From Candidatus Altimarinota bacterium (GTDB lineage Bacteria; Patescibacteriota; Gracilibacteria; JBDHUY01), in NCBI GenBank assembly GCA_039809385.1, contig JBDHUY010000004.1, forward strand, positions 71,298-135,297: 64,000 nt of DNA, read 5' to 3'. The notes under the pieces are model-generated. The model worked only from the letters and a program-made list of their open reading frames with translations, had not been told where the DNA came from and made no database searches. Within the stretch, counting starts at the first letter, position 1. Every line of letters starts with the position of its first letter. Made by a program: the position numbers and the translations under genes. Below, in pieces: positions 49,801 to 64,000 of this stretch.

Positions 49801-51306
49801 ATGGAAAATCGAAAATTTCTGGTTTTGGGGGGAGCTGCCGGGTTCATCCTGCTTTTATTCGTGCCCTTCTTGTTCAGCGCCGTTTTGCGTGCTTGTTCGG
49901 CTCCGGCTGCGCCTAAAAACACTAATGGAAATCAAACCGTCCAGGTCGTTCAGAAAAAATTGACCGTGTGGGGAGTCGAGGATCAACGTGAGTTGTACGA
50001 AGGAATTTTTCAGTCCTTTTCCCAGAATCATCCCGGTTTTTTGGTCGATTACCGCACATTCAGCGATCTGAAAGAATATCACGACCTGTTAATCGATGCG
50101 ATTGCCGAAGGACGCGGACCGGATATAGCAATGGTCGAAAATACCTGGGTATTGAAAGATAAAAACAAATTTTCGCCCTTCCCGGTAGGGTTGCGCGAGA
50201 TCGATGCAAAAAAATATCGTGAAACCTTTGTCGATGTGGCTGCCAAAGATCTGATCCTCAACGACGATGCGGGAGTACCTCAGATATGGGGATTCCCGGC
50301 CAGTGTCGATACGTTGGCCATTTACTACAATAAAAAACATTTCCGGGATTATGTTCTTTCCAGCGCGTTGCCGGCCGATTTGTGGAAAAGCGCCGGCGGA
50401 AACGACATTATCGGCCAGGTGATCAAAATGACGAAACCCGATCTCTCGTTCGAGCGTTTCCAACTATCGGGTATGGCAATGGGACGATCCGACAATATAA
50501 GCATGGGCATCGATATCCTGTCATTGCTGTTGCTCCAGTTTAATACCAAACTCTACGACGAAGCATTTACCAATACGATCTTGCCCAACAGCAGCGGAAT
50601 CGATCCTACTACCAACGAATCAGTCTTTCCGGCTCAAAACGCGCTTCAGCTCTACACCAGTTTTGGTTTGAACGAATTCAAACATTATTCCTGGAACGAA
50701 CTGATTACCAAGAAAGAAGAAGGTGATGACGAGATCGGCGTTTTTGCGGGCGGGAAAGTTGCCATGATTTTCGGATATTCTTCAACCTATGACAAAATTA
50801 TCGCCACGATCAAGCGTAAAAAAGAACGCGGGAAACCCACCATGTCCGAGGACGATATCGGGATCGAGCCGGTTCCGCGTATCAATGAGGGATTGGATCG
50901 TGTCACATATGCCAGCTATTTTCCTTTTGTCGTGACGAGTACCAGCGGGTATAAGCAAGAAGCCTGGGATCTGATACTCGATCTGGTCGATCGGTCGGCT
51001 CAGGAACTCTATTTTTCCAAAGCCCATAAACCCACCAGTCTGTATGATCTGGTAGATGCTCAGTCCATTGATCCGTTATACGGAGTGTTTGCTCTGCAAG
51101 TCAGCTCGGCGCAAAGTTTACCCCTGGTCGAGCCCTTTAAACAGCGCGAAATACTGGCGCAGATGGTCGACGATGTTATTAATGGGCGTAAAGATGCCCG
51201 CCAGGCTATTACCGAGGCGAATACTCGTATGAAATGTCTGCTCGATCAGTATAATCGCGTGCAGGATAAAGAGGGGATCAATTGTTTGAGGGTGCCTTTG
51301 CAGTAG
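49801..51306 (+). CDS. Extracellular solute-binding protein (sugar ABC-type)
   Basis: TM anchor; LTVWG, GRGPDI, DTLAIYYNK and FAGGKVAM motifs. Confidence 0.85.
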   Translation: MENRKFLVLGGAAGFILLLFVPFLFSAVLRACSAPAAPKNTNGNQTVQVVQKKLTVWGVEDQRELYEGIFQSFSQNHPGFLVDYRTFSDLKEYHDLLIDAIAEGRGPDIAMVENTWVLKDKNKFSPFPVGLREIDAKKYRETFVDVAAKDLILNDDAGVPQIWGFPASVDTLAIYYNKKHFRDYVLSSALPADLWKSAGGNDIIGQVIKMTKPDLSFERFQLSGMAMGRSDNISMGIDILSLLLLQFNTKLYDEAFTNTILPNSSGIDPTTNESVFPAQNALQLYTSFGLNEFKHYSWNELITKKEEGDDEIGVFAGGKVAMIFGYSSTYDKIIATIKRKKERGKPTMSEDDIGIEPVPRINEGLDRVTYASYFPFVVTSTSGYKQEAWDLILDLVDRSAQELYFSKAHKPTSLYDLVDAQSIDPLYGVFALQVSSAQSLPLVEPFKQREILAQMVDDVINGRKDARQAITEANTRMKCLLDQYNRVQDKEGINCLRVPLQ

Positions 51307-51451
51307 TTATATGTGAGAGACTTCTCCTAGATTGGAATATATTGTGCAGCCTACTACTGTAAAATATTGCAAAAGATATTACCCCATTTTTCGTAATCGG
51401 AAAGAAGAAAGTTATTAGTTCTTTTAGTGTTGAATGCAGGAATTTCTTCAA

Positions 51452-51694
51452 TTATATTAATCTTTTGTTTCTAAAAGCGATCCCCGATGCGGGTTTCAAA
51501 TATTTCTCAAAATCTAAAACTTTTTTCTTATCCTTAAACGCACAGTGATAAACCATCTTCCAGGGGCGAAATTTATTTGTATGAACAGATTTACCACTAT
51601 TATGTCCTTCCAAACGAAGATGAATATTCTCGGAAAACCCTGTATAGAATTGTTTTGAAAAATGAATGCTCTGTATAATGTAAACGTAGAACAT
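51452..51694 (-). CDS. Small GIY-YIG nuclease family protein
   Basis: FYVYII...YTG.....RL..HN.G...T....PW and FEKYLK motifs. Confidence 0.9.
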   Translation of the reverse strand: MFYVYIIQSIHFSKQFYTGFSENIHLRLEGHNSGKSVHTNKFRPWKMVYHCAFKDKKKVLDFEKYLKPASGIAFRNKRLI

Positions 51695-51806
51695 ATTAGG
51701 TAGTTTATGGCAGTGCCATTCGAAGCGTCTATGCAAATTACTTTCCTGAAAGCATGGGCCCTTCTTCGCTAGAGCTACGAAAGGCATTCTTCGCTGGCGC
51801 GAAGAA

Positions 51807-51892
51807 TGGTGGGAGGTGACGGATTCGAACCGCCGAAGGCGTATGCCAGTAGATTTACAGTCTACCCCATTTGGCCACTCTGGTAACCTCCC
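51807..51892 (-). tRNA. tRNA-Tyr(GTA)
   Basis: Reverse complement: GGGAGGT acceptor, GTAGA-CTGTAAA-TCTAC anticodon arm, long variable arm, CCA end. Confidence 0.96.
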
Positions 51893-51960
51893 GTGAATAA
51901 CATACAGGTTTTGATTTCAAAGTTCGACGAACTCTGAACGCGTGTCTCGAACTAATTTAC

Positions 51961-52035
51961 TGGAGCCACCTGTCGGATTTGAACCGACGACCCGCTGTTT
52001 ACAAAACAGCTGCTCTACCGCTGAGCTAAGGTGGC
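51961..52035 (-). tRNA. tRNA-Thr(TGT)
   Basis: Reverse complement: GCCACCT acceptor, GCTGT-TTTGTAA-ACAGC anticodon arm, CCA end. Confidence 0.96.
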
Positions 52036-52111
52036 CTGAAACAGATAACCAATAATCCTTGGCTGCGGATTGGCAATTTCGGGTAGGGTACTTCCCGCCA
52101 AGAGCAGTGCC

Positions 52112-52140
52112 ATATTATGGTAAAGCTAGAAGGGCGTCAA
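52112..52140 (-). promoter_or_regulatory. Putative promoter of the tRNA-Thr/Tyr operon
   Basis: TTGACG-N17-TAATAT on the minus strand. Confidence 0.55.
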
Positions 52141-52360
52141 GCCGGGTTTTTCAAAATCGGCGTATTGGCTTTTGCCAAGTTTTGTAATATTGGTTAGATT
52201 CTCGCATTTATCTTTTTAAGCAGCATGTGATTTTTCTATATTATTGGATTCTGGCAAATCTTTTTTAATTCCGCTGTCTTGTGAGAAAGGCCTTACATTG
52301 GTATACTTTACCAGAAATGCTTGATACGAATGTATTTTATTCATTAAACAAAAAGTATCT

Positions 52361-53152
52361 ATGCAACGCACACCCGACGATGTTTTTCATCAGTATCTCT
52401 CTTTGCTTCTGGCCGCAGTCGTAATCGGAGGATCTCTGATCTTGGGAGCCAATAATATTGCGGCGAATCTCAAACTGGTAGCCGACAGCAAACCTGCTAT
52501 GCAGGCTGCCGACAAACCCGGTACCGTAGCCGATAACAATACCCAGCCAACCCCAACCCCGACGCCAACTCCAACTCCGACTCCTCAGCCGACGGTCGCA
52601 GATCTTTCCGGTGTAACGTTCGACGACGCTGAAATTCTCGGCAAAAAAGATGCTCCTGTGACGATTATCGAATTCAGTGATTTTCAATGTCCGTTTTGTA
52701 AACGTTTGTTCGATACGGTCGAAGCACAATTGAAAAAAGAATATGTAGATACGGGCAAGGTGCGGTTCATTTATAAAAATTACGCTTTTCTCGGACCTGA
52801 CTCGGTGAGTGCAGCACAAGGTCTGTACTGTGCTAAAGACCAGGGTAAATATTGGCAGTATCATGAGTATCTGTTTACCAACCAGGGTGCGGAGCATGGA
52901 GGCTGGGCTTCCAAAGAAAATATTAAAAAGATTGCGGCGGAAAATCTGAAGCTGGATGCCAAAAAATTCAATGATTGTATGGACACTGAGAAATATAAAG
53001 ACAAAGTCAATCAAGATCTGCTTGAGGGACAAAAGATTGGTGTGAACGGTACTCCGGCCACATTTATCAACGGTGAGTCGATTCCCGGTGCTCAACCGTA
53101 TGCCGTGTTTAAGGCCGCTATCGATAAGCAGTTGCAAGCGAAGGGACTGTAA
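52361..53152 (+). CDS. DsbA family thiol-disulfide oxidoreductase with (PT)n linker
   Basis: FSDFQCPFC, GVNGTP and GAQPY motifs. Confidence 0.93.
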   Translation: MQRTPDDVFHQYLSLLLAAVVIGGSLILGANNIAANLKLVADSKPAMQAADKPGTVADNNTQPTPTPTPTPTPTPQPTVADLSGVTFDDAEILGKKDAPVTIIEFSDFQCPFCKRLFDTVEAQLKKEYVDTGKVRFIYKNYAFLGPDSVSAAQGLYCAKDQGKYWQYHEYLFTNQGAEHGGWASKENIKKIAAENLKLDAKKFNDCMDTEKYKDKVNQDLLEGQKIGVNGTPATFINGESIPGAQPYAVFKAAIDKQLQAKGL

Positions 53153-53185
53153 ACTCTGAAAAAATTGCTACGAGTATCTCTTCTA

Positions 53186-53219
53186 AAAGAGCTGGAACTT
53201 GTTTCCGGCTCTTTTTTAT
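53186..53219. terminator. Bidirectional intrinsic terminator
   Basis: aaaagagctggaa...ttccggctctttttt between convergent genes. Confidence 0.75.
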
Positions 53220-53220
53220 T

Positions 53221-54708
53221 TTATGTTTCGACTTTTCCCGTCGTGTATGGAAGGGTTACCAGGGGCGATTCCGTGGAATTTTCGAATTGACGGGCTGCCG
53301 ACAGATAAGCTCCCGTCAAGAGTGTCACACCTCCCGAATGTGTCTCGAGGGAAGAACGGGCCGTATTAATATCGAGGCAACTTTCCAAGAAGTTATATAA
53401 AAGATCTCTTCTGCTCGCATCTATTTTCCAGTTTTCATATTGCGGAAATAGCTTTAAAAGTTCTCCGACAATATTCATTCTTCCGCCTTTGATCATGGTT
53501 CTTATACCTTTTCTCGTTCTTGCTCCTTGTTTCTGTAATAGCGGATTGTAGGCTGAAGCGCTCCAGTCTTTGATCAAAGTACCGCTCATGTCGGAATCCA
53601 CCAGTGTATGAAAGGCATAGGGTCCCTGAAATATCTGCCATTCCTCGTGTTTGAATCGTCCGCTTCCTTGATACAGATCACTCTGATCGAGACTTCCTGT
53701 CCTGGCAGATAGCCCGTTATGGATCAAACTTGCTTCTGCCGTCGTGACGATCTTTCCTTGGGATAAAAATTTCATGAAGACATGAGCGTCAATCTCTCCT
53801 TTGGGAGTTTCGACTTTTGTTTTTTCCGGGCTTGCATCTCGCGGGGATAACTTGATGGGATGGGCAGATAAATCGTTAGCTCTCACAAAGGTTGAGAAAA
53901 ATTGAACGGAATCGATCTGGATCGGACTATTCGATGTCCGGATGATTTGATCTATCATGTCAAAAATATGGTAACCTGTGTGTCCCAAGACCCCATAGCC
54001 TCGATCAAATCCATGATATTGTATAGTGGCTAATTCTTCGGCTATTCTCCATTGTCCGTCAGATTTTACAACCCGAATATGGCTGGGAGCTTGGCCGGTT
54101 TGGGTTTGAACGTTTTCTATTTTCTGCAACAGTTCTGTATACTGCGGATCATAGCGTCTTTGCACGCTTATCTGGCAGGCCAGCTGTGGTTTCTCTTTTT
54201 TTGCTGTTTCATAGGCATCTGCCAGTCTTTTATAATCTTCCAGAATCTTGTAGGCTTGAGTCGGATTGATACCGGCATCCTTGCTTATAGTAATTGGCTT
54301 GTCGATCAGCGTATGTATCTTGTTTTCGATTAACCATAGGGCATAGTCGAGGTGCGATTCCGGTTCGGTGGAAACAATTCCTGCACTGATACCGTTTTGT
54401 GGAAAAATATCAGAAGGAATAATCTGTTTCTGATCGTTTGCATAACGCTCATGAAATTCGGCAGCAGTCAAAACGACTGTTTGATTATATCCCAATCGAG
54501 CCAGGTAATTTTTCGTATCTTCAATCTTGTCCTCTAGTTCCACAACGAAGCTGATGCGGGTACGCAGCACTTTGCTCAATGAGTAGATCAGCGGAAGATA
54601 AACGTCACGAGCATACGGCCCGCATCCGAATACCCCTAGGTTAAAATCTCCTTCTTGCGAGGTATCTGTATTTGGTTTCCAGCCATTGATTAGACGTGAT
54701 ACACCCAT
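53221..54708 (-). CDS. Gfo/Idh/MocA-family oxidoreductase-like protein
   Basis: GVFGCG, STEP..H, IDKPI, QRRY and HTGYH..D motifs. Confidence 0.72.
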   Translation of the reverse strand: MGVSRLINGWKPNTDTSQEGDFNLGVFGCGPYARDVYLPLIYSLSKVLRTRISFVVELEDKIEDTKNYLARLGYNQTVVLTAAEFHERYANDQKQIIPSDIFPQNGISAGIVSTEPESHLDYALWLIENKIHTLIDKPITISKDAGINPTQAYKILEDYKRLADAYETAKKEKPQLACQISVQRRYDPQYTELLQKIENVQTQTGQAPSHIRVVKSDGQWRIAEELATIQYHGFDRGYGVLGHTGYHIFDMIDQIIRTSNSPIQIDSVQFFSTFVRANDLSAHPIKLSPRDASPEKTKVETPKGEIDAHVFMKFLSQGKIVTTAEASLIHNGLSARTGSLDQSDLYQGSGRFKHEEWQIFQGPYAFHTLVDSDMSGTLIKDWSASAYNPLLQKQGARTRKGIRTMIKGGRMNIVGELLKLFPQYENWKIDASRRDLLYNFLESCLDINTARSSLETHSGGVTLLTGAYLSAARQFENSTESPLVTLPYTTGKVET

Positions 54709-54790
54709 GGCCTAATGAATATTGGAGGTTAAAGTTAATTCAAGTGTATACTTATACCACCCGTATATAAAAAATAAAGCTAAATATACA

Positions 54791-54821
54791 AAAAAAAGAC
54801 CTTTCACGGCGAAAGGTCTTT
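54791..54821 (-). terminator. Intrinsic terminator
   Basis: aaagacctttc/gaaaggtcttt stem with A-run on the + strand (U-run on the - strand). Confidence 0.8.
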
Positions 54822-54850
54822 AAATCAAGGTTTGTGGCAGAGAGAAAGAG

Positions 54851-55384
54851 CTATCCCTGGGGTTCGCCAGTGGTATTTTGTTTTTCGGAATCAGGGAGCT
54901 TCTGCTCAAAAAAATGCATCTTGCCGGCTCCTTTGAAAAAATGATTCTTGAGACGTTTCCCCGGATGGCCCGGCAGCTCGAGCCCCAGTTCTGTGCGAAT
55001 ATCGTTGGCTGCCTGCATCTTTTCGGCGGCTTCTTTCAGCAGTTTGTGCATCTCGGCGAAACGGGCGAAATTGTCCTGGGTAATCTTCTGATACAATGGC
55101 CCGGTTCGTCCGTATTGTTCCATCAGCGTCTTCCATTCGGCATAATCGCCTTCCTCGATTTCTTTCGCCAAAGCTTCATGTTGGGCTTTCATCTCGGCCA
55201 GTTTGGCGGGATCAAGCATTTTATGGAAAAATCCCTTTTGATTTTCCCCGGTAGATTCGGTCTGTTCGGCAACGGGATCTGGTGCCGTGTTCTGATTCTG
55301 GGCACCGACACTGCTGGCCGTAATACCGGATGTGACCAGTACCACCCCGGTCAGGGTCGTAGCAAGTAAAAGCTTCTTATTCAT
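54851..55384 (-). CDS. Hypothetical secreted helical protein
   Basis: Signal peptide; IEEGDYAEW and IT.DNF.RF.EMH motifs. Confidence 0.7.
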   Translation of the reverse strand: MNKKLLLATTLTGVVLVTSGITASSVGAQNQNTAPDPVAEQTESTGENQKGFFHKMLDPAKLAEMKAQHEALAKEIEEGDYAEWKTLMEQYGRTGPLYQKITQDNFARFAEMHKLLKEAAEKMQAANDIRTELGLELPGHPGKRLKNHFFKGAGKMHFFEQKLPDSEKQNTTGEPQG

Positions 55385-55448
55385 AGAAAATTAGGATAAA
55401 ACAGAAAGTAAAATAGGATAATACCGCGGTTGAGAGGTGATCAATCCC

Positions 55449-56243
55449 TCAGGGAGTAGTACGATCCGGTAAAAAATTTTCTTTCATTTTTTCTCTGAAT
55501 TGTTGCAGAGGCGGTTTCAGAAGGGGAAAAAATCGCGGTTTGGGCGGACGGATAAACCAGGGGAGGATCCGAAACGCCCTGAACCGGTCCGGCCCGGTCT
55601 GGTGTCCTTCCAGGCGGATCCGGATACCGTTTATCAGTGGCGGATGCGGCGGTTTTACTTCAGTGATGTTGATATACCACAGTTTGTTGTGCATGTCGCG
55701 TAAACGGAATCCGGCTTCCGCCTGACCTTGTACTTCTTCGATCATCCCGTTGAGCAAGCCTATTTCAGGTCTGAGCCAGCGGTTCTCTTTTGTGACCATG
55801 ACCTGCTCGTAAAACGGTACGTTTTGAACTGCCAGATCTTCCAGTGTTTCGGGCAAATCGGTAAAACTATATACAACAACCCCGCCGATAAAACTCAGCG
55901 CCAGACTTGCCATGATAGTCACGCTGAACCCCCAGCGGTAGCCTCGTTGGGTGTGCTTGAAGTGGTAATAAGCACTGCCGATAAACAGCAGTGTAAAAAT
56001 GATCCACAGATACGGAATATCCATTAGTAAAAAGATCCAGCGATTGGAAAAATCGTAGTATACTTCCCAATCGAAGTCATAGACATAAAACAAAAATACA
56101 GCACAGGCCAGACTCCCCAGCAGGATAGATAGGATTAACAAAACTCGAATAACCCACGCATTGAGCAGAAACTGCCAGCGCGGTTTCGGTTGGATGTGTT
56201 CCTTGTCTATTTGTTCGAGCACCTTTTGGCTAATATCGGGCAT
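55449..56243 (-). CDS. Membrane protein, candidate anti-sigma factor partner
   Basis: I.PKPRWQF; three TM helices plus an extracytoplasmic domain; downstream of the ECF sigma gene. Confidence 0.6.
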   Translation of the reverse strand: MPDISQKVLEQIDKEHIQPKPRWQFLLNAWVIRVLLILSILLGSLACAVFLFYVYDFDWEVYYDFSNRWIFLLMDIPYLWIIFTLLFIGSAYYHFKHTQRGYRWGFSVTIMASLALSFIGGVVVYSFTDLPETLEDLAVQNVPFYEQVMVTKENRWLRPEIGLLNGMIEEVQGQAEAGFRLRDMHNKLWYINITEVKPPHPPLINGIRIRLEGHQTGPDRFRAFRILPWFIRPPKPRFFPLLKPPLQQFREKMKENFLPDRTTP

Positions 56244-56255
56244 GGAAATGGGGGA

Positions 56256-56386
56256 GTGAAAAGTGAAAAGTGAAAAGTGAAAAGTCAAAAGTGAAAAGTG
56301 AAAAGTGAAAAGTGAAAAGTCAAAAGTGAAAAGTCAAAAGTCAAAAGTCAAAAGTCAAAAGTCAAAAGTCAAAAGTCAAAAGTCAA
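56256..56386. repeat. Heptamer tandem repeat GT(G/C)AAAA x18 plus a partial
   Basis: Counted 9 GTGAAAA and 9 GTCAAAA units. Confidence 0.97.
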
Positions 56387-56431
56387 TATCCTTATCCGTA
56401 TGTTCCATACATAATACATTATACCTAATAC

Positions 56432-57037
56432 CTAATACTTCCCCCTCATCATCGCCGCAAATTTATCTTTGGCTATTTTTTTAGCGCGGTTGATCAGCGT
56501 GGCGACGGTTCCCATCGGTTTTTGTAAAATATCGCTGATCTCCCGGTAATCTTTATCTTCGAAATACTGCAGTACCAGAACTTCGCGATAATCTTCGGGG
56601 AGGGTGTTTAGTACGTTTTTTACCTTTGCGCTTAAAAGTTTTTGATCCATTTCTTCGGGCAAGTCGGTAGTGTCTCTAAGAACATCCAGCAGTTTTCCGG
56701 CATCGGGATTGCTTTCGTCGTCGAGCGAAATATGGGACGCTTTGCTTTTCTTTTTTCGAACGTGATCGATCATTTCGTTATGAACGATCCGGTATATCCA
56801 GCTGCTGAATTTGAGTGAGCGATCGTAGCCCCGGATGTTCAGATAGGCTTTCAAAAATGCGTTTTGCAGGATATCTTCATAGTCCTCGCGACGTTCCAGT
56901 CGCGTAATACTCATCAGGAATCGTAAGAGCCTCTGCTCATATCGTTCCATCAGATAGAGATAGTTCTCCTTGTTCTCAAGAACCATGCCCACCAGTTCTT
57001 CGTCGGTTTTCTGTTCGATATCGATGATTTTTTGCAT
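56432..57037 (-). CDS. ECF RNA polymerase sigma factor
   Basis: EDILQNAFLKAY, FSSWIYRI.HN and region 4 YREIS.IL..P.GTV...INRA. Confidence 0.93.
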   Translation of the reverse strand: MQKIIDIEQKTDEELVGMVLENKENYLYLMERYEQRLLRFLMSITRLERREDYEDILQNAFLKAYLNIRGYDRSLKFSSWIYRIVHNEMIDHVRKKKSKASHISLDDESNPDAGKLLDVLRDTTDLPEEMDQKLLSAKVKNVLNTLPEDYREVLVLQYFEDKDYREISDILQKPMGTVATLINRAKKIAKDKFAAMMRGKY

Positions 57038-57155
57038 AGGACTGCCACTTCTTATACGTTTATAAATGTGTTTTTCTTTCACTCTCGGTCAAGGACGCGC
57101 ATTTCCTACTATAGCTTCTTTCACAAAGAAGTTCAATTTGTGTTCTAACGTGATC

Positions 57156-58322
57156 TCACCTCTCTCTGGCCTGAAATGTTTCAAGGGTTTCTGCCAAATC
57201 TTCAATGAGGTCTGAAGAGTCTTCTATCCCTACCGAAAAGCGTACCAACCCGTCGGGTAGCCCGGCTTTTTTGCGTTCCTCGGCAGGAATCGACGCATGG
57301 GTCATGCTGGCCGGGTGATCTACCAGCGATTCGACGCCGCCCAGACTTTCGGCGAGCGTGAAAAGTTCGAAAGAGGCGATAAACCGCTTCATTATTTCCA
57401 GCTCAAAATCGAATTCCGCCGACACGATCCCGCCGAAGCCCGACATCTGTGCTTGCGCCACTCCATGATTCGCGTGACTGGCTAACCCCGGATAGTAGAC
57501 CTTTTTTACTTTCGGATGTTGTTGTAGAAACTCGGCGATTGCCATAGCATTTTTCTGGTGTTGCTCCATACGCAATCCGAGCGTCTTGATCCCGCGCGAG
57601 GTCAGCCATGCGTCGAACGGACTGGGGTTGAGCCCCATGGCTTTTCGTAAAAAATCGGCTTGCTCTTTGATGCCGCCCTGATTCGTAATAAGAGTCCCGC
57701 CGATAATATCCGAATGGCCTCCTAAATATTTTGTGGTACTGTGAATGACGACGTCTGCTCCCAGAGCCAGCGGATTTTGGAAATACGGTGTGGCAAACGT
57801 ATTGTCGACCGCGACGATGGTATTGTATCGATGCGCCAGTCCGGCGACTTTTCTAATATCCGTAATCCGTAGTAGGGGATTGGTAGGGGATTCGATAAAA
57901 AGCAGGGCCGGTTGTTCCTCCAGGCTTTTTTGTACCGCTTCCAGATCGGAGGTATCTACCTGCAGGAGGCGGATGCCGAACTTCTCGAATACCTGCCGAA
58001 ACAGGCGGTATGTCCCGCCGTACATGTCGTACGATGCTACTACCGTATCGCCGCTTTTGAGCATGCTCACGAGTGCGGTAATTGCGCCTAATCCCGAAGA
58101 GAAAGCAGTTGCGAACTTGCCCTGTTCCAGGCTGGCCAGCGTTTCTTCCAGGTGGGTGAAATTGGGATTGCCGGCCCGGGTATAGTCGTATCCTTTGTGA
58201 GCCCCCGGAAACTCCTGGGCATAGGTCGAGGTCATATAGATCGGCGGAATGACCGAGCCGGTATGCGGATCCGGTTGTTGTCCGGTATGAATGGCGTGAG
58301 TGAGAAAAGAACGTGGTTTCAT
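57156..58322 (-). CDS. Cystathionine gamma-lyase/synthase (Cys/Met metabolism PLP enzyme)
   Basis: YTRAGNP, FSSG, ESPTNP, VDNTF, HSTTKYLGGHSD (PLP Lys) and SLGGVESL motifs. Confidence 0.95.
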   Translation of the reverse strand: MKPRSFLTHAIHTGQQPDPHTGSVIPPIYMTSTYAQEFPGAHKGYDYTRAGNPNFTHLEETLASLEQGKFATAFSSGLGAITALVSMLKSGDTVVASYDMYGGTYRLFRQVFEKFGIRLLQVDTSDLEAVQKSLEEQPALLFIESPTNPLLRITDIRKVAGLAHRYNTIVAVDNTFATPYFQNPLALGADVVIHSTTKYLGGHSDIIGGTLITNQGGIKEQADFLRKAMGLNPSPFDAWLTSRGIKTLGLRMEQHQKNAMAIAEFLQQHPKVKKVYYPGLASHANHGVAQAQMSGFGGIVSAEFDFELEIMKRFIASFELFTLAESLGGVESLVDHPASMTHASIPAEERKKAGLPDGLVRFSVGIEDSSDLIEDLAETLETFQARER

Positions 58323-58358
58323 GATTGATAATGAGAAGTTAGGATAAAAATAAAACAC

Positions 58359-58390
58359 AAAAAAACTCCCGGACAGAGGCGAGAGTTTTT
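58359..58390 (-). terminator. Attenuator terminator in the leader of the Cys/Met enzyme
   Basis: mRNA AAAAACTCTCG-loop-CGGGAGTTTTTTT, 36 nt before the ATG. Confidence 0.8.
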
Positions 58391-58415
58391 ACATTGTGTC
58401 GGCGGTATGGAAATT

Positions 58416-58505
58416 TTATGCACGACAACAGCAAAAAGCGCCTCTGGAACAGCGGTTGAATCGACAACAAGTCTGAGAAGAAAATTGCGAGACGACTGCG
58501 TGCAT
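58416..58505 (-). CDS. Cys-rich leader peptide (29 aa)
   Basis: MHAVVSQFSSQTCCRFNRCSRGAFCCCRA*; 6 Cys; contains CAGAGGCG, complementary to the terminator. Confidence 0.8.
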   Translation of the reverse strand: MHAVVSQFSSQTCCRFNRCSRGAFCCCRA

Positions 58506-58597
58506 GTAAATTTTTTTAATATCTTGTAGTCTTATAATACCTTTTCTGTTTCCAAACAACAACTATAATCTTTTTAGTCCTCTGAAATGATCGGTTA

Positions 58598-58625
58598 TTG
58601 ACGATCTCCTTTTTTCTCCTAAACT
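58598..58625 (+). promoter_or_regulatory. Sigma70-type promoter upstream of the tandem Arg leaders
   Basis: TTGACG-N16-TAAACT. Confidence 0.6.
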
Positions 58626-58648
58626 TAGAGTAAATTTCTCCACAGACT

Positions 58649-58735
58649 ATGCAACTGCTTTGTATCAACCGGCGACGACGAGTTTCTCAAAAATCTTTCC
58701 TGTCGAAAGTCGGTTTAACGTTGCTTCCTCTCTAG
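58649..58735 (+). CDS. Arg-run leader peptide 1 (28 aa)
   Basis: MQLLCINRRRRVSQKSFLSKVGLTLLPL*; codons CGG CGA CGA CGA. Confidence 0.7.
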   Translation: MQLLCINRRRRVSQKSFLSKVGLTLLPL

Positions 58736-58758
58736 TTTTTCTCTTTTGCAACGACCAT

Positions 58759-58790
58759 AGAGCTTTCCCGACGGGAAGGCTCTTTTTTTT
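58759..58790 (+). terminator. Attenuator terminator 1
   Basis: AGAGCTTTCCC-GAC-GGGAAGGCTCT followed by T7. Confidence 0.82.
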
Positions 58791-58817
58791 GCGTATTCTC
58801 TTCTTATTTTTTCTATC

Positions 58818-58895
58818 ATGAATTTCTCGTTTTATTCTTTCTCTCTTATCTCCTCTCTGCGACGACGCTTTTTCCATTGCGGAAAAGGGCCCTAG
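58818..58895 (+). CDS. Arg-run leader peptide 2 (25 aa)
   Basis: MNFSFYSFSLISSLRRRFFHCGKGP*; codons CGA CGA CGC. Confidence 0.72.
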   Translation: MNFSFYSFSLISSLRRRFFHCGKGP

Positions 58896-58920
58896 TTTAT
58901 GATGATTAGCGTTTTCTCTC

Positions 58921-58965
58921 AAAGCCTTTTTCCAAGCTGATCCAATCTGGAAAAAGGCTTTTTTT
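58921..58965 (+). terminator. Attenuator terminator 2
   Basis: 14-bp stem AAAGCCTTTTTCCA/TGGAAAAAGGCTTT plus T-run, 23 nt before ATG 58989. Confidence 0.85.
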
Positions 58966-58988
58966 ATTTCTTTTTATCGTTTTGTTTC

Positions 58989-60464
58989 ATGAATGACTCT
59001 GTATCTTCTGTTCCGGTTCTTGAGCCAGAGATTGATTCTCCCTCTATCTCTATCGAGAAACCGCCTAATATTTCTCACTCCGTTTCGGCATCGACCCGTA
59101 CGGCCTTAGCAAGTTTGGGCATACCGCAAAACCAAATCGCTCTGCTCGAGCAACATTTGGATACGGCCGGGCAGTTTGTGCATGCGGTCGATGCCGGTTT
59201 TTCCGAAAGTTTCGAATGGCTGAAAACTTCGTTATTCCAGACAATCGGAAATTCCGATCAGGTCGCAGCGCTCTTGTCGATCGTGCGGAATAATTTTCGC
59301 GGACAACCGGTTACGTATGGCGAAAACGGCTACGACTCCTACCAATCGCGCCGCTGTTTTTCCAAAGTTGTCAGCGAGGCCTTGCTAGTAGGGGGAGTCT
59401 TGTTGGAAAGTTCTCTGTTAGGGCTAAAGCTAAATCTGAGCGAAGTACAACAGATGATCGGTTCATCGCTCGCCATTGAGGAAGCTCACCAGGCTATTCT
59501 GATGCAACTGGCTCAAACCTATGGTGGCAGGCAGGATTTTTTGTTTCCCGGCGTCATCCCGTCATCTCCCGATACTCCCGGACTGGATGGTTTAGCGTAT
59601 CAGGCTCTCAAAGGAACCCCGCTCAAGACCGTCAGGTCTCTGACGGGGATTGGCGGCTTTCGTGCCGATAACGACCGGAGCTATGCGGTCGATTTGTCCA
59701 GTTTTGCTCATATGAAGGTGCAGGAGGATCGCCGCTATTATCCGGGTGTCGGCATATTCTACCTTTTGCAGAATATGCCCTTTGAGCAGATCCCTTTAAG
59801 TATAAAGAAGGATGAACGGTATGAAAAGGTACAGGAAAGATTAAAGAGATTCGTCACTGCGCTCAAAGCCGCGCCGACCGAGAAGTTTTCGGGTGTGTCG
59901 GTACTTTGTTCCGCCTATATTCCTCCATGGCACGAGTTAAAAACGTTCCAGGGCTTTATGACCAAACAGTCGCTGCCGTTGGCAGAATCGTTTCATTCGG
60001 CTTCCTACGAATTCATGGTTTTGAAAAAAATCTGCCAGGCTATAGGGAGCGAAAAAGAAGTAACGCCGGCTCTGTTAAATGAACTGGACGGACTTGAGAA
60101 AAAACTGGGCTATTGCTGGAGCTTTAATTCCACGGTCCATCTTTCCTGGACGAATGATCTCTCCTATCTGGCGCACGATCTTTTCGGTAAAATGACCAAT
60201 CAGCTAGGGGATACCTGCAGCAGATTCGGTTTAAGTTACAAGGGCAAAAGCCTGGAGGTCCGCGAATACGTTTTCGGTGTTGACAGGAACTTTCCCGCCG
60301 GCGTCGCCGGGGGCAAAGCGTATGCGGTGCGTTTCTATGCCAAAAGCGAGCAATTTGAGGGAAAGTATGAAACTTCGGTGCTCTTGCCGCATGATCCGTT
60401 TTGGCAAAAGATAGAAAAGCAGGGATTTCTGAAAGCAACTTTATCTCTCTTAGCTTCCAAATAA
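58989..60464 (+). CDS. Hypothetical protein (491 aa)
   Basis: Long ORF, no recognised family motif. Confidence 0.75.
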   Translation: MNDSVSSVPVLEPEIDSPSISIEKPPNISHSVSASTRTALASLGIPQNQIALLEQHLDTAGQFVHAVDAGFSESFEWLKTSLFQTIGNSDQVAALLSIVRNNFRGQPVTYGENGYDSYQSRRCFSKVVSEALLVGGVLLESSLLGLKLNLSEVQQMIGSSLAIEEAHQAILMQLAQTYGGRQDFLFPGVIPSSPDTPGLDGLAYQALKGTPLKTVRSLTGIGGFRADNDRSYAVDLSSFAHMKVQEDRRYYPGVGIFYLLQNMPFEQIPLSIKKDERYEKVQERLKRFVTALKAAPTEKFSGVSVLCSAYIPPWHELKTFQGFMTKQSLPLAESFHSASYEFMVLKKICQAIGSEKEVTPALLNELDGLEKKLGYCWSFNSTVHLSWTNDLSYLAHDLFGKMTNQLGDTCSRFGLSYKGKSLEVREYVFGVDRNFPAGVAGGKAYAVRFYAKSEQFEGKYETSVLLPHDPFWQKIEKQGFLKATLSLLASK

Positions 60465-60468
60465 CTAT

Positions 60469-60972
60469 ATGAAACTCTTTTTATTCGACTGCGACGAGAC
60501 GTTGTGGACGTCTCCAAAAAAAGATTATATCAGCCGCGTTCCTTCTCCCTTTAAGAAGGTAGGATCTTCCGAGATTCTCCGCGAAGCCGACCAGTATGCT
60601 TTTCGTTTACAACCTTCCGTCCAGGAAACGTTTGCCTACCTTGCAGGCCGTAACGATACTGCTGTTGGTATTGTAAGCGATAATCTCTTCGAGCCCGTTC
60701 AGCAGGCACTTATGTTCTTTGATTTATGGTCTTTTATAGACTCGAATGCGGTAAATGTGCGCCTGTGGCAGGGGTACTGTCCAAAACACGAGATGATTCT
60801 CGAAATACTGAATCGGCCTGTGTTTCTACCTACGGTATTGCTTCAGGATACCTATTGGTTCGATGATAAGGATTATCAAAAAGAAGCGGACGGGATTGGT
60901 GTACATTTTATACAAGTCTCTTTAGAAACGAATCTCCTAACTTGCGTCAAAAAGATTATGAAAGATCTATAA
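60469..60972 (+). CDS. HAD superfamily phosphatase (magnesium-dependent phosphatase-1-like)
   Basis: FDCDETLW (DxDxT), IVS, K and FDD motifs. Confidence 0.82.
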   Translation: MKLFLFDCDETLWTSPKKDYISRVPSPFKKVGSSEILREADQYAFRLQPSVQETFAYLAGRNDTAVGIVSDNLFEPVQQALMFFDLWSFIDSNAVNVRLWQGYCPKHEMILEILNRPVFLPTVLLQDTYWFDDKDYQKEADGIGVHFIQVSLETNLLTCVKKIMKDL

Positions 60973-61099
60973 TTTGAACTATTTCCGTCCGTTACGAGGA
61001 ACTTCGTAGTCTGCAGGTTCTTTGTTTATCTTAGTAGACGAAGCCCCAACGGGGCCCTTTAAGGGCAATCTTTGGGTGCTTATTAACGGCAGGTAACAA

Positions 61100-61161
61100 G
61101 AGATTGCTTCGTCTAAAAGTTTCGTTACTTTCAAGGGATATACTTGCTTCCTCGCAATGAC
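61100..61161 (-). repeat. Half-copy of the GTCATTGCGAGG element
   Basis: Reverse complement gtcattgcgaggaagc...cttgaaagtaac...gacgaagcaatctc. Confidence 0.75.
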
Positions 61162-61190
61162 GATGAAAAAGTCCACTATTACAATACATT

Positions 61191-61316
61191 GCTGGAGCAA
61201 TCGTCCCGATTGCTTCTCCCGTTTCTCGTAACATGTCTTACAAGCAGATATCCCTAGATTCGCTGAAAATAATCATACGTTTCCGGTTCTTGTTTACTTT
61301 TCCAAGCTACGAAAAA
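61191..61316. repeat. Third, incomplete copy of the GCTGGAGCAATCG element
   Basis: gctggagcaatcgtcccgattgcttctcccgtttctcgtaac. Confidence 0.65.
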
Positions 61317-61487
61317 CATTAAGTAACAGGCAAAAAGTGAGTGAGAGTACTTGTTTCCCATGCTTCCTACTTCATGATTCACATCCCTACCAACCAAAAA
61401 GGGCCGCCCGTTTCCGAGCAGCCCCTTTGCTTTATGGACTTTATAACTTTATTGATTTTAAAGACCCTTACAGGGCCCCTTTGGGGT

Positions 61488-63182
<1,695 letters not shown>

Positions 63183-63403
63183 TTAAAAATGAAAAGTCGT
63201 TCAGATTGAACCTATCCGAAAGAAGTATCGAAGTTCAAAATCCAAAGTTCTCAATTCGCCGTGGCGAAACCAAAATACGTTCAAATCTCAAATGATCAAA
63301 ATCTTAGTTTCTTTCTGATCTATGAATTTTCTGAGACTGGTACTTTGGATTTTATCTGGGACTTGGATTTTGAAATTGGGATTTCTTTAGATAGAAAGAG
63401 CAA

Positions 63404-63715
63404 TTATTCTTTAATTGCCAAAATGCTGTCCTGGTGAACCACCCGGTATTCGATACCGTCTCTTTTAAACTCGTCTCCGGCATAGCGGCTGCAGATAACT
63501 GTATCGCCGACCGCGATTTCCATCGCAATGCGTTTGCCGTGGTCGTCCATTTTTCCCGGACCGACCGCCACGACCTCAAACATGGAAGGTTTTTCCTTGG
63601 CCGAATCGGGAATGATAATACCGGAAGCCGTTTGCGTTTCGGCTTCGACCGGCATCAAAATGACATTATCCCACAAGGGACGAAAGCCGATCGCTTTTTT
63701 CTTTTGGTCTGCCAT
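63404..63715 (-). CDS. groS: Co-chaperonin GroES
   Basis: RPLWD, TASGIIIPDSAKEKP and VVAVGPG motifs. Confidence 0.97.
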   Translation of the reverse strand: MADQKKKAIGFRPLWDNVILMPVEAETQTASGIIIPDSAKEKPSMFEVVAVGPGKMDDHGKRIAMEIAVGDTVICSRYAGDEFKRDGIEYRVVHQDSILAIKE

Positions 63716-63754
63716 AGTGTTGTAGCAGGTTAAAGAAGTAAGATAAAAATTGCG

Positions 63755-63781
63755 TTAGCACTGTTAATTATATAGTGCTAA
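63755..63781. promoter_or_regulatory. CIRCE element (HrcA operator) overlapping the groESL promoter
   Basis: TTAGCACTG-N9-TAGTGCTAA vs consensus TTAGCACTC-N9-GAGTGCTAA; minus-strand TTGCAC-N16-TATAAT overlaps it. Confidence 0.9.
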
Positions 63782-64000
63782 AATAAGGGTGCAAGAGAAT
63801 TTGGTTTTTAGGGTACGATTCGATCGATTCAAAAAAGTTTGTAGAAAACGTAACCTTTTTACTGCTCGCCCGTTATATATATAACTTGAATTACGAAATA
63901 GCTTTGGAGAAGAAATAGCCGAAGAGGACATGAATATAATGGGCTAAATAGCCGTTGACACTTCGAGCGAGGGTGGATACGAGCCCGAGACGTTCTTTGA

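Follow-up and report, generated by a model that had tools for sequence, protein, structure and literature searches.

In classical attenuators the position of a ribosome on a run of codons for one amino acid decides between a terminator and an antiterminator, and the classical cases, those of trp, his, leu, thr, phe and ilv in Proteobacteria, do not include arginine. Here we consider a 390-nt leader ahead of a two-gene operon in a 64,000-nt stretch of DNA (the window, meaning this whole stretch), taken from contig JBDHUY010000004.1, positions 71,298 to 135,297, of Candidatus Altimarinota bacterium, an uncultured bacterium with a 1.87-Mb genome. We think that two ribosome-mediated transcription attenuators, each built on a run of Arg codons and placed in series, control this operon, and we put the probability of that reading at about 0.65.

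Several described systems come close to such a design. In Salmonella, ribosome pausing at consecutive Arg codons of orf34, the short open reading frame (ORF) at speF, is reported to refold the mRNA in low arginine and to raise expression (PMC6386406), and the Salmonella mgtCBR leader is described as a set of tandem attenuators in which translation of each of two short ORFs controls stem-loops and transcription into the coding region (PMC3641672). Leader-peptide attenuators are also described at trp, ilvB and leuS of Actinobacteria, and Cys-run leader peptides are known there (PMC1262725). Charging of a tRNA can likewise be read by a T-box, and T-boxes and leader peptides are documented to replace one another on orthologous genes, hisS being one example (PMC2965389). 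A full-text literature search for a bacterial Arg-run leader peptide with an intrinsic terminator found none, and only orf34 surfaced.

Leader anatomy and predicted switching

Two divergent genes flank the 630-bp spacer (58359-58988) that holds the leader, one on the minus strand for a Cys/Met-metabolism pyridoxal phosphate (PLP) enzyme and one on the plus strand for a protein of 491 amino acids (aa), P0001, whose ATG is at 58989. A first-pass annotation of this DNA had proposed the order promoter, leader 1, terminator 1, leader 2, terminator 2 and gene, and every one of these elements was found where it had placed them. The sigma-70-like promoter candidate TTGACG-16-TAAACT (58598-58625, plus strand) matches at 9 of 12 positions, is the sole plus-strand promoter match within 58200-59200 and would start a single transcript about 17 nt ahead of the first short ORF. 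This ORF, sORF1 (58649-58735, plus strand; 28 codons, ATG start; MQLLCINRRRRVSQKSFLSKVGLTLLPL), carries the Arg run CGG CGA CGA CGA (RRRR) at 58670-58681, has its stop at 58733 and ends 24 nt ahead of intrinsic terminator 1 (58759-58790, plus strand), which consists of an 11-bp stem (58759-58769/58773-58783), a GAC loop and then seven T, at -16.7 kcal/mol; the equivalent gap is 17-28 nt in six other candidate leaders. The second, sORF2 (58818-58895, plus strand; 25 codons, ATG start; MNFSFYSFSLISSLRRRFFHCGKGP), carries CGA CGA CGC (RRR) at 58860-58868, stops at 58893-58895 and is followed by intrinsic terminator 2 (58921-58965, plus strand), whose 14-nt arms (58921-58934/58948-58961) are 100% complementary and enclose a 13-nt loop, again with seven T behind them. 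The only sequence common to the two units is a 14-nt GCGACGACG-type repeat, as had been noticed at first pass. The minimum-free-energy (MFE) fold of 58630-58995 (366 nt) contains both terminators and the Arg-codon hairpins (z=-2.9).

In both units, then, an in-frame cluster of codons for one amino acid, which makes up 4.8% of long-ORF codons in this genome, is followed by an intrinsic terminator standing between the short ORF and the gene it would regulate. Such arrangements are few in the genome as a whole: 2203 terminator-like sites were predicted, and just three distinct intergenic short ORFs with at least three consecutive Arg codons end 90 nt or less upstream of one, two of them being sORF1 and sORF2. 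The third, an RRRR short ORF on contig C8, was set aside, as no gene lies downstream. A minus-strand ORF of 85 aa across the leader (58665-58922), with a TTG start and a low-complexity K/R/E-rich product, was taken as spurious. Rfam scans of 50000-64000 and 58360-59000 gave nothing at gathering score except two tRNAs. None of the amino-acid leader families (His, Leu, Thr, Trp, Phe) reached that score in the leader; Phe_leader gave 22.4 bits against a gathering score of 55 and covers the terminator only, and Leu_leader gave 12.9 bits against 50 on the opposite strand. The T-box family RF00230 had no match in 58360-59000 at E up to 10.

In unit 2, the strand 58880-58891 (region 2, plus strand) and the 5' arm of terminator 2 can form a duplex of -16.0 to -16.2 kcal/mol, whereas shuffled sequences average about -8 kcal/mol (p=0.002-0.004; the pairings here were tested against dinucleotide shuffles). 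This recovers, in slightly longer form, the pairing of 58881-58890 with a terminator arm that the first-pass annotation had drawn, and it gives unit 2 an antiterminator that excludes the terminator and exceeds chance. The strand starts 12 nt downstream of the last Arg codon, and its end is 2 nt short of the stop codon. When both states of the nascent unit 2 RNA were folded under constraint, with footprint sizes assumed, masking the Arg codons left 58880-58891 paired with the terminator 5' arm and masking the stop codon abolished that pairing.

These folds suggest how unit 2 would work. With Arg-tRNA plentiful, a ribosome translating sORF2 would reach the stop at 58893, 2 nt past the strand, and cover 58880-58891; terminator 2 would then form and transcription would end near 58965. 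With charged tRNA-Arg scarce, the ribosome would stall on CGA CGA CGC with its footprint ending just before 58880, leaving 58880-58891 free to form the antiterminator, and RNA polymerase would read into the gene. Because the ribosome at the stop codon would itself cover the antiterminator strand, unit 2 needs no protector hairpin, in agreement with the weak statistics of the hairpin between its Arg codons and region 2. That unit 2 is an Arg attenuator is, in our judgement, quite likely.

Unit 1 would follow the trp pattern instead. Its Arg codons (58667-58680) can pair with 58701-58715 in a hairpin ('1:2'; 58667-58715, plus strand) of -14.8 kcal/mol, which the MFE fold renders as 58667-58673 with 58709-58715 and 58676-58680 with 58701-58705, and a candidate antiterminator strand (58694-58706, plus strand) can form a duplex of -17.3 kcal/mol with terminator 1, engaging its loop and 3' arm (58769-58783). 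A ribosome finishing sORF1, whose stop lies far downstream at 58733, would leave the Arg codons to pair with 58701-58715, and a stalled one would free 58694-58706 to compete for the terminator 1 3' arm, its sole good partner. Whether unit 1 is a working Arg attenuator we regard as an even question. If both units act, their read-through probabilities would multiply, giving low leak and a steeper response to arginine starvation, and the first-pass suggestion of an AND-type or sharpened sensor is in this respect a reasonable one. Taken together, an Arg-sensing attenuator is probably real and probably doubled, and its most likely role, as predicted from the leader, is to switch the operon on at a shortage of charged tRNA-Arg.

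The spelling of the Arg runs and the decoding apparatus of the host (genome G000) bear on what such a sensor might read. Across the five short ORFs (sORF1, sORF2 and those of the related loci L006, L012 and L015, described below) each of the 16 Arg codons is CGN and none is AGR, against an overall AGR share of 17.6% of Arg codons in the host genome; in the short ORFs of the window five of seven are CGA, which genome-wide makes up 12% of Arg codons and is the rarest CGN codon. The host's tRNA-Arg anticodons are GCG, UCG, CCG, CCU and UCU. With no tRNA-Arg(ACG), CGA would be read by a dedicated UCG tRNA, and the idea that its decoding here hinges on inosine-modified tRNA, raised at first pass, does not apply. 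The genome has 47 tRNA genes, with a G34 tRNA in every four-codon box. Of 650 long ORFs only 23 have a Shine-Dalgarno site ahead of the start, compared with 62 of 650 for a control window, and the regions upstream of starts are G-poor and T-rich; given this genome-wide scarcity, the absence of a Shine-Dalgarno site before the short ORFs is normal for the host.

A related strain and the orthologous operons

Contigs from an aquaculture metagenome (run X7) cover the leader at 90-95% identity to the window and show how it varies in a related strain. A 3-nt deletion at 58670 removes one Arg codon from sORF1, keeping the frame and leaving RRR. Over 58713-58991, 25 of the 29 substitutions fall within 58794-58874, the spacer and the N-terminal codons of sORF2, where two 1-nt indels, an insertion after 58844 and a deletion at 58853, offset one another and restore the frame. 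Either indel alone would lose the Arg frame of sORF2, and the pair argues for its translation. With the listed changes applied by script, sORF2 keeps its ATG, its length of 25 codons, CGA CGA CGC, the C-terminal FHCGKGP and the stop, and residues 3-14 are mostly changed. Judged from these contigs, the leader varies as one would expect if the peptide served regulation, and not as if the peptide had a function of its own.

More distant comparisons come from 18 loci with P0001 homologues (36-47% identity), which reduce to 14 distinct loci with upstream sequence (L004 equals L009, L005 lies within L010, and L018 and L021 lack the 5' end). In 12 of the 14 the orthologous operon carries a T-box-type leader. 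An nhmmer profile built from six loci matched by RF00230 recovers the six held-out ones end to end (L006, 1e-21; L017, 3e-16; L016, 1e-11; L011, 5e-9; L020, 5e-7; L019, 2e-5), and gives no hit in L012, L015, the window or anywhere in the host's own genome. Stem I in all 12 is a hairpin of 4-7 bp whose stem covaries, with at least eight different stem sequences, and its apical loop reads pyrimidine-CGC-purine (Y-CGC-R) in every case. According to published T-box rules, a short Stem I carries the specifier in its apical loop, the third base is overwhelmingly C and a conserved purine follows (PMC7583486). A CGC (Arg) specifier fits all three rules in 12 of 12 loci, and we infer that this is the register in which the tRNA is read.

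Beside these leaders we note that L019 has a 21-codon short ORF without an Arg cluster (L019:1392-1477) between the T-box terminator and the gene, overlapping the gene's start codon, and that its T-box terminator carries a long insertion. The relatives' 0.6-0.8-Mb genomes (G042, G044, G045; L027, L028, L029, L032, L035, L036) contain a few further T-boxes. One has a long Stem I with UAC and stands ahead of a TyrRS-like operon (a name read from the translation only); others are ultrashort with the loop UUUCCCG, and one of these precedes an ORF resembling a small tRNA-binding-domain protein (again named from its translation).

The two loci without a T-box, L012 (MMIMVTPLQFNVRRSRRMYGCYPFSV) and L015 (MFMFNHAITFSSRRSRIYGGDACSVQK), have instead a promoter, a short ORF with an Arg cluster (RRSRR or RRSR), a terminator and the gene. 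L006 has both kinds of leader in series: a T-box with its terminator, then a Shine-Dalgarno site, a short ORF (MSNPNCNSHHNNHYRVRISGGCS; …YRVRISGGCS) and a second terminator. In each of L006, L012 and L015 the stretch that directly follows the Arg codons can pair with the terminator 5' arm (p=0.003 each), with helix sequences that all differ. The Arg codons of the relatives are also spelled differently (CGT CGC AGC CGC CGT; CGC GTC CGT), and the peptides of L012, L015 and sORF2 share a loose pattern of Arg cluster, aromatic residue and Gly/Cys. Codon run and structure are therefore kept where the peptide is not, in a sample of three loci and one strain. With a CGC-loop T-box on some copies of the operon and Arg-codon leaders on others, two unrelated sensors of tRNA charging point to arginine. 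This comparative evidence largely bears out the Arg-sensing interpretation.

The genes under this putative control give few hints of their own. Gene 1 (58989-60464, plus strand) encodes P0001, which belongs to a small family (43 representatives among 1.84 billion cluster representatives) and matches nothing in Pfam, NCBIfam or the PDB. AlphaFold models it with confidence (pLDDT 84.6), leaving residues 1-27 disordered; the N-terminal 33 residues form an extra disordered extension. Compared with solved folds, the best Foldseek (PDB) hit has E=0.036 and VIA-align reaches no more than Z=4.5, across about 60 residues; a sequence profile run against the PDB gave no match and the ESM Atlas no usable one. 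Gene 2 (60469-60972, plus strand) encodes an MDP-1-like phosphatase of the HAD superfamily (167 aa; TIGR01685 match at E=4.4e-10, below the cut-off), and in all 12 related loci long enough to show it a HAD phosphatase gene directly follows the P0001 homologue. Five members of the P0001 family (P0014, P0019, P0028, P0030, P0033) are fused to an N-terminal PPDK_N ATP-binding domain, two of them also to a PEP-utilizers mobile domain, and because of these fusions the family suggests an acceptor-binding module of a dikinase-like enzyme; PPDK_N was not found in the host genome. Farther along the window, long ORFs at 61341-63179 (plus strand) and 61488-63158 (minus strand) overlap on opposite strands, the plus-strand one having no Pfam or NCBIfam match.

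Weighing a doubled switch against other readings

Several observations weigh against two Arg attenuators in series. No 1:2 'protector' pairing stands above chance in any unit (p=0.15-0.96; 0.15 for unit 1, 0.36 for unit 2). The first-pass annotation had paired the unit 1 Arg codons with 58701-58714, which the MFE fold contains but shuffles match too often, and 58868-58875 with 58881-58888 in unit 2, which holds by eye (8 bp, one G-U) and appears in the MFE fold one base 5' (58867-58874 with 58880-58887) but likewise does not exceed chance. Of the trp/his-type geometry that it saw in both units, the trp-like layout of unit 1 and the stalling logic in the unit 2 folds survive, but the protector hairpins are no better than shuffles. 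The terminator pairing that it gave for 58695-58705 is a real duplex, but one with the 3' arm (2:4), and marginal against shuffles (p=0.03); pairing with the terminator 1 5' arm (2:3) is not significant (p=0.3-0.43), and the unit 1 antiterminator would be at a kinetic disadvantage, having to outcompete a local hairpin of 11 bp closed by a 3-nt loop. The 'double' switch therefore rests mainly on unit 2.

Other points in the same direction are of a more general kind. The promoter match is weak, two such sites occurring in the region against 1.2 expected from shuffles, and is not significant alone; nor is an RRR short ORF by itself rare under random expectation. The sole RNA run containing part of the stretch, a metatranscriptome, covers 59857-60007 only, which is coding region, with the leader outside. 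The X7 contigs are single, of depth 3-5, with 26 differences not displayed; the sORF1 deletion in them could be simple CGA-repeat slippage, and two of their changes weaken the unit 2 1:2 helix. The T-boxes on the orthologous operons score below the RF00230 gathering score of 93 (six loci at 35.9-45.1 bits and a seventh, L006, at 23.8 bits), low values that we attribute to the loss of most of Stem I, and their loops could also be read in a GCG/GCA (Ala) register, but that register breaks the C-rule and puts U as the next base in three loci. Finally, family and fold searches with the operon products gave no arginine link (nothing above Pfam or NCBIfam cut-offs, no PDB fold, no Atlas match), so that the only link to arginine for these genes is a regulatory one, the CGC T-box on their orthologues.

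The statistics of unit 1 leave room for a single switch behind a roadblock, in which only unit 2 works and unit 1 is a terminator that is constitutive or under some other control, a duplicate in decay or a small transcript in its own right. A single unit suffices in L012 and L015, and the two units here share just the 14-nt repeat. Yet terminator 1, with its stable stem and seven T, stands between the gene and the sole promoter-like site, and if constitutive it would keep the operon silent; sORF1 has an ATG start, an in-frame Arg run and a gap to its terminator like that of the other leaders; X7 keeps RRR in frame in it; and L006 shows two sensors in series on the same operon. We consider this explanation unlikely, though it deserves to be kept in mind. 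That an RNA-binding attenuation protein or some other trans factor (cf. PyrR, TRAP) might recognise the repeat itself, or the hairpins, with the reading frames incidental, is harder to sustain. There is a direct repeat, GCGACGACGAGTTT / GCGACGACGCTTTT, with one copy in each unit, and both units contain weak matches to the PyrR site RF00515 (21.9 bits, E=1.3, and 17.9 bits, E=7.3), but these fall far under the gathering score of 54 and mostly align the terminators, the motif is absent from the relatives' leaders, which share in-frame Arg codons in different spelling, and the frame-restoring indels of X7 argue for translation. We hold such a factor to be improbable.

A functional role for the encoded peptides, for instance as substrates or partners of the 491-aa protein with the terminators tuning stoichiometry, would make sense of short ORFs directly preceding an enzyme-like gene of unknown function and of the loose residue pattern common to L012, L015 and sORF2. 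Against it, an Arg-cluster short ORF is missing from 11 of the 12 T-box loci, which shows that the protein can do without the peptide; outside the Arg cluster the peptides cannot be aligned, the residues that they do share fall on the strand of RNA engaged in terminator pairing, and the N-terminal half of sORF2 is rewritten between strains, all of which makes a peptide function very improbable. Basic-x-basic motifs are macrolide arrest sites and nascent-peptide sensors of amino acids exist, and the Arg runs could on that ground be drug-dependent or nascent-chain arrest sequences sensing ribosome-targeting antibiotics or free arginine, not tRNA charging. The downstream genes, however, match no resistance family in Pfam or NCBIfam, the orthologous operon stands under a T-box, which reads tRNA, and no peptide conservation extends beyond the Arg run; the switch also differs from erm-type arrest leaders in using terminators, not ribosome-binding-site sequestration. 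We see no sign of the drug sensing raised at first pass, and we give arrest of either kind scarcely any credence. Pure coincidence, two ordinary terminators in a long AT-rich spacer with fortuitous short ORFs, could draw on the chance-level promoter match and 1:2 pairings and on the low rate at which random RRR short ORFs are expected, but two co-directional terminators between divergent genes have no gene to terminate, two of the genome's three terminator-linked RRR short ORFs lie here, the unit 2 antiterminator has p=0.002 and the relatives show the same arrangement. To coincidence we assign next to no weight, and paired Arg attenuators remain our preferred reading.

Host setting and known systems

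One ribosome-based logic seems to govern Arg-, Cys- and Met-linked genes in the host, if its other leaders are read in the same way. On the minus strand of the spacer a Cys-rich short ORF (58505-58416; MHAVVSQFSSQTCCRFNRCSRGAFCCCRA) has 6 Cys in 29 codons, against 0.9% in the genome, and is followed after 17 nt by a terminator (58398-58356, minus strand) that precedes a cystathionine gamma-synthase/lyase-family gene with its ATG at 58322. Its antiterminator duplex (2:3) has -15.2 kcal/mol and p=0.0035, making it a candidate cysteine leader-peptide attenuator. A Met-rich short ORF (MSRYSNIPSQEVSVNNICRTGYMMMAIMMMMRLLRRQMV; …MMMAIMMMM…) with a terminator (L025:227-1616, equal to G000:C1:138926-140315, minus strand) stands ahead of a 396-aa gene with a weak match to SAM hydroxide adenosyltransferase/SAM hydrolase (SAM, S-adenosylmethionine; PF01887, 26.0 bits against a cut-off of 26.3); with p=0.09 for its 2:3 pairing we treat it as a candidate methionine attenuator. 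The same genome also has three weak T-box-like matches of 24-26 bits with GGTGG(T/A)ACC antiterminator motifs (L022, C2:36229-36426; L023, C14:552-730; L024, C5:19444-19616), followed by a small membrane ORF and an acylphosphatase-like ORF, a Ham1/ITPase-like ORF and a CYTH-like ORF (names read from translations).

As for arginine itself, neither an ArgR domain nor argininosuccinate synthase was found in the host genome, which is estimated to be 95% complete. It has one ArgRS gene, and argS has no leader or terminator of the Arg-attenuator kind. A Chlamydia-like host was considered and rejected, no FHIPEP being found; a search for TLC was uninformative, as control genomes were negative too. 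P0001 was found in 0 of 300 other genomes of the host class, so that a close comparison of leaders there is impossible, and a search with the leader DNA in 40 relatives of the same class gave only 30-nt chance-like matches. The nearest relatives of P0001 are in the 0.6-0.8-Mb genomes labelled Patescibacteria or Saccharimonadales; on this distribution the operon looks acquired by the host, with its leader rebuilt in the host's style.

A wider proposal can be built on this, tentative and in our view somewhat doubtful as a whole. Small-genome bacteria would have an undescribed arginine-starvation operon, made of an enzyme of unknown fold and an MDP-1-like phosphatase and always wired to a sensor of tRNA-Arg charging, with the sensors (a CGC T-box with ultrashort Stem I, or an Arg leader peptide) swapped or stacked; the present host would have acquired it and re-fitted it with two leader-peptide attenuators, as part of a host-wide Arg/Cys/Met set that works without Shine-Dalgarno sites and without ArgR. 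If this were true, the products of the operon would make up a new route by which arginine is supplied or spared. Having two unrelated tRNA-Arg sensors on one operon ties the protein family and its phosphatase partner to arginine starvation and makes their function testable, and stacked identical sensors would offer a natural test of how stacking sharpens a response.

Compared with the T-boxes known so far, those of the relatives resemble the actinobacterial ileS type, described as translational (PMC7583486), in the short Stem I and apical specifier, and differ from it in ending in intrinsic terminators, so that they look transcriptional. A literature search for T-boxes in Patescibacteria found no paper. 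The window itself has no T-box, and the two types of leader are alike in reading tRNA charging. Closer to the window leader in its sensing element is speF orf34, also a short upstream ORF with consecutive Arg codons, which is described as having two such codons, RNase G-sensitive structures with Rho-dependent termination and a conserved peptide core, DUF2618 (PMC6386406). Our leader has three or four Arg codons, intrinsic terminators and a peptide that is not conserved. The two ORFs of the mgtCBR leader reportedly report different signals, ATP on the one hand and proline or charged tRNA-Pro on the other, and are said to lack canonical intrinsic terminators, whereas both ORFs here carry the same Arg signal, each with its own terminator. 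Features that the leader has in common with the classical attenuators are a short ORF in which codons for a single amino acid follow one another, an intrinsic terminator ahead of the gene and a mutually exclusive antiterminator, and it appears trp/his-like in its working, though it matches none of Rfam's leader models. It differs from them in the amino acid, in having two units in series, in a host without Shine-Dalgarno sites and in controlling genes that belong to no known biosynthetic operon. The kind of mechanism is thus a known one. What would be new is its Arg specificity in combination with intrinsic terminators, its doubling and its link to an operon of unknown function, and a clean Arg-codon switch of this kind would extend the repertoire of attenuation.

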